Shown here in pieces: positions 58,067 through 58,943 of a stretch of DNA of 64,000 nucleotides. The notes below the pieces were generated by a model. The model saw only the letters and a program-made list of their open reading frames with translations. It did not search any database and was not told the origin of the DNA. The translations under genes and the position numbers were made by a program. Each line of letters starts with the position of its first letter. Position 1 is the first letter of the stretch. Source of the stretch: Escherichia coli (lineage in GTDB: Bacteria; Pseudomonadota; Gammaproteobacteria; Enterobacterales; Enterobacteriaceae); assembly GCF_003334765.1 (NCBI RefSeq), contig NZ_QOWT01000001.1; one strand, 5' to 3'.

Positions 58067-58591
58067 TCAGAAATGCACGTGTGATTTTTTTGCATCCGGC
58101 GTTTGGACTATGTGGAGCTCAAGAGTGGGAAAGTTACAAGAGGTTGAGGGGATAATTAAAGGGATGCTTATGACATTAGATATCCGGTTAGGTGCGGATA
58201 TCGTTGTTATTAAATCTAGTTGATACGTTAAGATGCAGCTACTGACAAAATAGCCAGGACTCCACAAAACGCCTTTGTCGTAATACCTGACTGCAATATC
58301 TGGTCGATCTCGTCGCAGTAACCTACTCGATACGCCTTTGAGGCTGTTTACCAGACTGGATATCGCCAGTTTGGGAGGATAGTTAATTAACAAATGGACG
58401 TGATCTGGTCCGCCATCCATTTCAACCCGTTCAGCTTCAAAATCAGCACATACATTTGAAAAGTAAGTGCGTAGTTTTTCTGTCGCGTCATGGTCAAAAA
58501 TCTGACGTCGGTATTTAGTAACGAAGACTAGGTGAACATGCTTCAGGAAAACACAATGCCTTCCGCGTCGGATATCGGTTTCTTTTTTCAT
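58067..58591 (-). pseudogene. tnpA: IS200-type Y1 (HuH) transposase TnpA fragment; homology ends near 58234
   Basis: MKKETDIRRGRHCVFLKHVHLVFVTKYRR...DHVHLL (HuH motif) ...RYYDKGVLWSPGYFVSSC, then unrelated residues; the catalytic-Tyr C-terminal helix is absent. Confidence 0.75.
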
Positions 58592-58900
58592 AGGCCAAAG
58601 TATGATTTGGCCCATGAAACGACTACAGGCATTCAAATTCCGGTTAAGACCAGGTGGTCAACAGGAGCGTGAAATGAGGCGCTTCGCAGGCGCATGTCGT
58701 TTCGTTTTCAATCGTGCTCTGGCGCTTCAGAATGAGAATCATGAGGCCGGTAATAAATACATCCCTTACGGGAAAATGGCTTCCTGGTTGGTTGAGTGGA
58801 AAAATGCCACTGAAACGCAATGGCTTAAAGATTCGCCCTCACAGCCATTGCAACAGTCACTGAAAGACCCTGAGCGGGCTTACAAAAACTTCTTCCGGCT
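58234..58900. mobile_element. IS200/IS605-family insertion sequence relic, truncated at both ends
   Basis: Divergent tnpA and tnpB fragments with back-to-back starts (58591 / 58614); neither reaches its normal C-terminus; boundaries approximate. Confidence 0.75.
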
Positions 58901-58943
58901 TCGTCACCACGCTCAAACGGTGTGCTACCTATCGCGGCTATAA
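58614..58943 (+). pseudogene. tnpB: IS605-type TnpB N-terminal fragment (about 95 of about 400 aa)
   Basis: MKRLQAFKFRLRPGGQQEREMRRFAGACRFVFNRALALQNE...ERAYKNFFR then premature end; no RuvC or zinc-finger domains. Confidence 0.75.

Follow-up and report, generated by a model that had tools for sequence, protein, structure and literature searches.

This locus raises the question of what two short, divergently oriented open reading frames, one related to TnpA and the other to TnpB, represent in a bacterial chromosome: a small intact element, or what is left of a larger one. The original prediction, made from the sequence of a 64-kb stretch of DNA (called the window here), was that positions 58067-58943 hold a doubly truncated IS200/IS605 relic that includes a fragment of TnpB. 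Our comparisons bore this out and named the element. A megablast search of 5,426 complete E. coli genomes put the window on the E. coli chromosome, with fliE on one side and yedF/yedE on the other, and identified the element as IS609, in agreement with NCBIfam models and with 96% DNA identity. The matching intact genes are annotated in RefSeq as "IS200/IS605-like element IS609 family transposase" and "RNA-guided endonuclease InsQ/TnpB". The feature is almost certainly a non-functional remnant of one IS609 copy that decayed by a series of deletions.

The limits of IS609 were set by comparing E. coli strain 2011EL-1370-2 (locus L002), which carries the whole element at this site, with the empty site of strain F11 (locus L004); an intact IS609 at another locus (L003) served as a further reference. 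The IS609-derived DNA of the window is 664 bp long (58235-58898) and shares 96% identity with nt 117-780 of the element, whose full length is 1747 bp. By blastn the match of 58235-58896/58898 to the intact copy in L003 (2501-3162) was 96.1% over 662 bp, gap-free, and the identity of 58235-58898 to the same-locus intact copy of 2011EL-1370-2 was 95.8%. The interval first proposed was too wide, as it follows the limits of the open reading frames: 58235-58898 is derived from the IS, while 58067-58234 consists of the spacer between ybcM and the porin gene plus three porin bases, and 58899-58943 is antisense yedK, neither of which is IS DNA. The features of the locus, with the evidence for each, are as follows.

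57911-58221, no strand: non-IS spacer downstream of ybcM, of which the final 155 bp fell within the interval first proposed (99.4% identical to F11, with no IS609 there)
58222-58237, no strand: older porin-deletion junction, GATACGTTAA joined to GAT... (same in L002)
58235-58242, no strand: left deletion junction, 8-bp microhomology GCAGCTAC (window compared with F11, L002 and L003)
58235-58898, no strand: all IS609-derived DNA, the central divergent-start core (gap-free blastn)
58235-58606, minus strand: tnpA fragment, codons 1-124 of 143 (NF033573 and residue-by-residue comparison)
58607-58613, no strand: the 7 bp that separate the annotated start codons of tnpA and tnpB (PGAP coordinates mapped by gap-free alignment)
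58614-58898, plus strand: tnpB fragment, codons 1-95 of 402 (NF040570 and comparison with IS609 TnpB)
58896-58898, no strand: right deletion junction, 3-bp microhomology CGG (window compared with L002, 1211 bp lost)
58896-59322, minus strand: truncated yedK, residues 1-142 of 222/223 (NF007413, PDB, YedK of L002 and PGAP pseudogene call)

The minus-strand open reading frame (58067-58636; 189 codons, open throughout) matched the NCBIfam model transpos_IS200 (NF033573) with an E-value of 3.9e-36 over profile positions 2-112 of 126. Its product tracked IS609 TnpA through residue 124 of 143 in the PGAP numbering. Counted from the methionine of MKKETD this is 119 residues, the point at which the match had been predicted to end. 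The HUH motif (HVHLL) was retained in the translation. The C-terminal segment of IS609 TnpA, GGAPISAIRQYIEQQ, was missing and unrelated sequence stood in its place; in this family the segment carries the catalytic tyrosine. The alignment of full-length IS609 TnpA to solved Y1 transposases extends to residues 139-141, so that by homology this segment runs to the end of the fold. Because the match stops at residue 124, just before GGAPISAIRQYIEQQ, the TnpA of the window is without the catalytic-tyrosine helix, as had been anticipated. The 51 codons past residue 124 are made up of the ybcM-porin spacer and the porin remnant, and F11 has this spacer although it carries no IS there. At the annotated start of tnpA, ATG had become ATC; this loss is among the changes, 8 synonymous and 13 non-synonymous, that are specific to the window when it is compared with two intact IS609 copies.

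The plus-strand open reading frame (58602-58943; 113 codons, also open) matched the NCBIfam model guided_TnpB (NF040570) with an E-value of 2.4e-21 over profile positions 1-92 of 389; both profile matches are far beyond what chance would give. Its product followed IS609 TnpB over residues 1-95 of 402 and then diverged, in line with the predicted match of about 95 residues, and the 14 codons past residue 95 are antisense yedK. Full-length IS609 TnpB aligned with ISDra2 TnpB structures across residues 3-376. Since all of TnpB past residue 95 is absent, the RuvC and zinc-ribbon regions are gone from the fragment; loss of the RuvC nuclease had also been part of the prediction. The two starts, proposed to lie within about 25 bp of each other, have 22 bp between them in the window (minus-strand ATG at 58591, plus-strand ATG at 58614) and 7 bp by PGAP in intact IS609 (in L003, tnpA ends at 2872 and tnpB begins at 2880).

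The guide RNA of characterised TnpB elements is encoded at the 3' end of tnpB and the right end of the IS. When the window was searched by blastn with the whole of IS609, the sole match in the 64 kb was the central one, given as nt 128-789 in that search, which confirmed that both IS ends and the guide-RNA region are missing. IS609 nt 781-1747, comprising the 3' region of tnpB and the right end, are deleted. The subterminal hairpins CCCCGTCCTTCAGGGCGGGG (left end) and CCACGTCCTTCAGGGCGTGG (right end), both present in L003, were absent from the window, and Rfam models gave no match in 57000-60000 even with a permissive E-value. The segment 58235-58898 is thus a member of IS609 by descent that has none of the functional attributes of the element. 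IS609 is a named, curated element with common intact copies at this locus, and PGAP already gives pseudogene status to the tnpA piece, to the tnpB piece (named a partial "helix-turn-helix domain-containing protein") and to yedK. A search of the IS609 literature returned survey-type mentions of the element and none on this locus.

Relative to known systems, the closest likeness is to IS609 itself, which occurs in K-12 and many other strains with tnpA and insQ/tnpB in the same gene order, divergent orientation and start-codon positions. In contrast to intact IS609, the window keeps only nt 117-780 of 1747, has no ends, catalytic tyrosine, RuvC or guide-RNA region, and has a mutated tnpA start. 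IS605 and IS606 of Helicobacter pylori are family elements with divergent tnpA and tnpB; they resemble the window in having divergent genes for a Y1 HUH transposase and TnpB with closely spaced starts. They differ from it in species and sequence, and the window element is only a fragment. TldR proteins are RNA-guided repressors that derive from TnpB and are dead as nucleases, and some have a link to flagellin genes. The flagellar neighbourhood of the window prompted us to consider a TldR-like domesticated TnpB, as the fragment, too, comes from TnpB, is inactive as a nuclease and lies among flagellar genes of an enterobacterium. TldRs, however, retain a guide RNA and the greater part of the TnpB fold, whereas the fragment has 95 residues, no guide region and a tail of antisense yedK. 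The candidate was rejected; the tnpB fragment is not a TldR.

The same locus in other E. coli genomes allowed the history of the remnant to be followed. F11 has the empty site, with emrE, ybcL, ybcM, a spacer, an nmpC/ompC-like porin gene, a second spacer and full-length yedK in this order, and window positions 56000-58231 correspond to L004 positions 1934-4165 with 99.4% identity. In 2011EL-1370-2 (E. coli O6:H16), a complete 1747-bp IS609 with full tnpB is present at L002 positions 5761-7507 between the same flanks, and yedK is full length. F11 reads ...GGCTTATC followed directly by AAACAGG, while 2011EL-1370-2 reads ...GGCTTATC, then IS609, then AAACAGG, with no target duplication. The same-locus intact copy is therefore inserted 3' of the short target TTATC without duplication, and the independent copy in L003 is likewise preceded by TTATC. 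Insertion 3' of a fixed short target without duplication is the behaviour expected of the IS200/IS605 family.

In 2011EL-1370-2, IS609 lies inside the yedK stop codon (L002 7500-7510 compared with L004 5940-5946), and the right end of the IS supplies a new stop one codon later. The YedK protein of this strain ends in ...IQPVC rather than ...IQPV and is otherwise intact. The strain also carries an IS1 between ybcL and ybcM (L002 3290-3987) that is absent from the window, which is another sign of IS accumulation on this small island.

The locus, the orientation, the flanks and the porin-deletion junction to the left were the same in 2011EL-1370-2 and the window. Both contain ACGTTAA joined to GATGCA, and in F11 the two halves are separated by a 1222-bp porin segment. 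Because this junction is identical in both, the window allele descends from a state like that of 2011EL-1370-2. For the same reason we rejected the left truncation as one large deletion from a state like that of F11; the porin-gene deletion preceded the left deletion, a step that the original prediction did not contain. The allele of 2011EL-1370-2 has both IS ends and complete tnpB and yedK genes; the window differs from it by two more deletions, one of 668 bp and one of 1211 bp, so that the deletions proposed on both sides of the surviving core were directly visible by comparison with a whole IS609 at the same locus.

At the left junction, the 8 bp of GCAGCTAC are common to the porin signal-peptide remnant and tnpA codons 122-124, and three bases of the porin 5' end remain ahead of the microhomology in the window. 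The deletion covers 668 bp in L002 coordinates and removed spacer, the left end of the IS and the 3' end of tnpA. At the right junction, CGG is codon 95 of tnpB and is also found within codon 143 of yedK on the opposite strand; it is embedded in an imperfect patch of similarity of about 15 bp. Here 1211 bp in L002 coordinates were lost, namely the rest of tnpB, the right end of the IS and the final third of yedK. Because the sequences shared at each of the two junctions are short, illegitimate deletion mediated by microhomology is indicated.

The preferred sequence of events begins with an ancestral locus in which emrE-ybcL-ybcM and an nmpC/ompC-like porin gene stood beside an intact yedK. IS609 inserted 3' of TTATC, within the yedK stop codon and with no target duplication, and a 1222-bp deletion took out the porin gene. 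With a 668-bp deletion between the 8-bp repeats of GCAGCTAC, the locus lost what was left of the porin leader, the spacer upstream, the IS left end together with its hairpin, and the final 19 codons of tnpA, the catalytic tyrosine among them. A 1211-bp deletion at CGG took away codons 96-402 of tnpB along with the right end and the final third of yedK. The 668-bp and 1211-bp deletions may have occurred in either order, and microhomology-mediated illegitimate recombination or replication slippage is the presumed mechanism.

The strongest competing account is that two independent IS609 insertions occurred at the site, the copy in the window having decayed and the other being recent. The target specificity of the IS200/IS605 family makes re-insertion at TTATC possible, and the relic is less similar to the copy of 2011EL-1370-2 (95.8%) than that copy is to an IS609 at another locus (98.1%). 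However, the exact porin-deletion junction is common to the two alleles, the same orientation and flanks mark the chromosomal backgrounds as sister states, and the relic has diverged about as far as the right flank, which is 96.4% identical. We therefore consider two insertions improbable, and if true they would change the genealogy alone and not what the feature is. The divergence of the relic from the same-locus intact copy (about 4%) is within the range of strain divergence, with the flanks of the window 1.4-3.6% diverged from L002. The higher similarity of the intact copy to IS609 at another locus may reflect homogenisation or replacement of intact copies after the split.

The right deletion also truncated a host gene, a finding that went beyond the original prediction: yedK is a DNA-repair gene that codes for an SRAP-family peptidase acting in abasic-site crosslinking. 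The yedK open reading frame (58825-59322, minus strand) continues into antisense tnpB for 22 codons and ends at a stop at 58825. It matched the NCBIfam model for YedK/SRAP (NF007413) only at profile positions 1-143 of 222, and the YedK chains 6kcq, 6kbs and 6nua in the PDB matched it with E-values of about 1e-97 over residues 1-143 only. The yedK of the window thus falls short of a full-length SRAP domain (about 222 residues), and PGAP annotates it as a pseudogene with its C-terminus missing.

Counts were obtained with junction-spanning queries against the 5,426 complete E. coli genomes. The right junction of the relic was found in 1111 of 5,426 genomes and the left junction in 1109, so the two are essentially always inherited together, and the counts hint that genomes with one junction alone are few at most. 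E. coli HS is one of the strains with the relic. The right end of intact IS609 joined to yedK was detected in 668 of the genomes; 456 had the empty site, and in 64 the relic carried an additional IS5-family insertion. The relic is a common, vertically inherited allele that is annotated as a pseudogene, a point on which the original prediction was silent, and the truncated yedK allele accordingly occurs in about 1,110 of the 5,426 genomes (about 20%). The window has the uninterrupted form, without the IS5-family insert. This insert is an element of about 868 bp with two open reading frames, a programmed frameshift and imperfect terminal inverted repeats of about 17 bp; it interrupts the tnpA remnant at the equivalent of window positions 58515-58518 and is flanked by TTAG (L001 4620-5487).

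With no ends and no catalytic tyrosine, the remnant is unable to transpose, and with no RuvC domain and no guide it is unable to act as an RNA-guided nuclease. A scan of 57900-59450 for sigma-70 consensus sequences found no promoter-like site, a result that gives no firm guide to expression; both remnant frames are open and would permit translation of truncated products. Disruption of the tnpA remnant is tolerated, since 64 genomes carry an IS5-family insert inside it. The remnant is most likely an inert scar, a reading that follows from the parts it has lost.

A secondary role was also considered, in which a tyrosine-less TnpA poisons the dimeric TnpA of other IS609 copies, or antisense transcription that starts in the surviving divergent start region reaches into the truncated yedK, yedF and yedE. 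TnpA of the IS200/IS605 family (IS608, ISDra2) works obligatorily as a dimer with active sites assembled in trans. By analogy, a subunit without the tyrosine could in principle be dominant-negative; the frames are open and other IS609 copies are present in most E. coli genomes. Against such a role, the region has no consensus promoter, non-synonymous changes are frequent, the annotated start codon is lost and 64 genomes tolerate an IS inside the fragment. Moreover, the left-junction query, of which tnpA is a part, found no second match in some genomes with the relic, and these would have nothing to regulate. It is accordingly very unlikely that either form of secondary role applies, and we give equally little credence to the specific proposal that the relic is not wholly inert because an open TnpA(1-124) acts as a dominant-negative subunit and so reduces the transposition of IS609 copies elsewhere. 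The alternative named with the original prediction, that the two frames are intact, naturally short TnpA and TnpB variants, forming a functional mini-element or encoding domesticated small proteins, can be dismissed with near certainty: although both frames are open and identical ones recur in about 1,110 genomes, their C-terminal tails arise by read-through into DNA of other origin (the spacer and porin remnant for TnpA, antisense yedK for TnpB), every recurrence is at one chromosomal locus with no independent families, the annotated tnpA start is mutated and the 64 genomes tolerate an IS within tnpA.

As a non-functional IS609 remnant, the feature is an ordinary genomic scar of little importance in itself. 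It is a clean, textbook example of the decay of an IS200/IS605 element by short-homology deletions with the loss of a neighbouring host gene. The four allelic states (empty, intact IS609, relic, and relic with a further IS) could serve as a marker of E. coli lineages. A practical point is that strains with the relic allele have a truncated chromosomal yedK; about 20% of sequenced E. coli are natural yedK-truncated strains and would give a ready population contrast for the repair of abasic-site DNA-protein crosslinks.

Several smaller features surround the remnant. A cassette resembling part of the DLP12 prophage, emrE-ybcL-ybcM (55871-57910), lies in the variable region that separates fliE from yedK and was compared with F11 (L004 1985-5428). 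Directly downstream of a terminator-like hairpin (58179-58202), the 20-bp unit CGTTGTTATTAAATCTAGTT is polymorphic in copy number, being present once in the window (58202-58221) and in F11 and as three tandem copies in 2011EL-1370-2 (L002 5137-5196). Between yedK and yedF, the 26-bp sequence cccgctgtgggccacagcggg (59398-59423) forms a perfect-looking palindrome that gave a self-reverse match in blastn against F11 and is probably a terminator or a REP-like hairpin.
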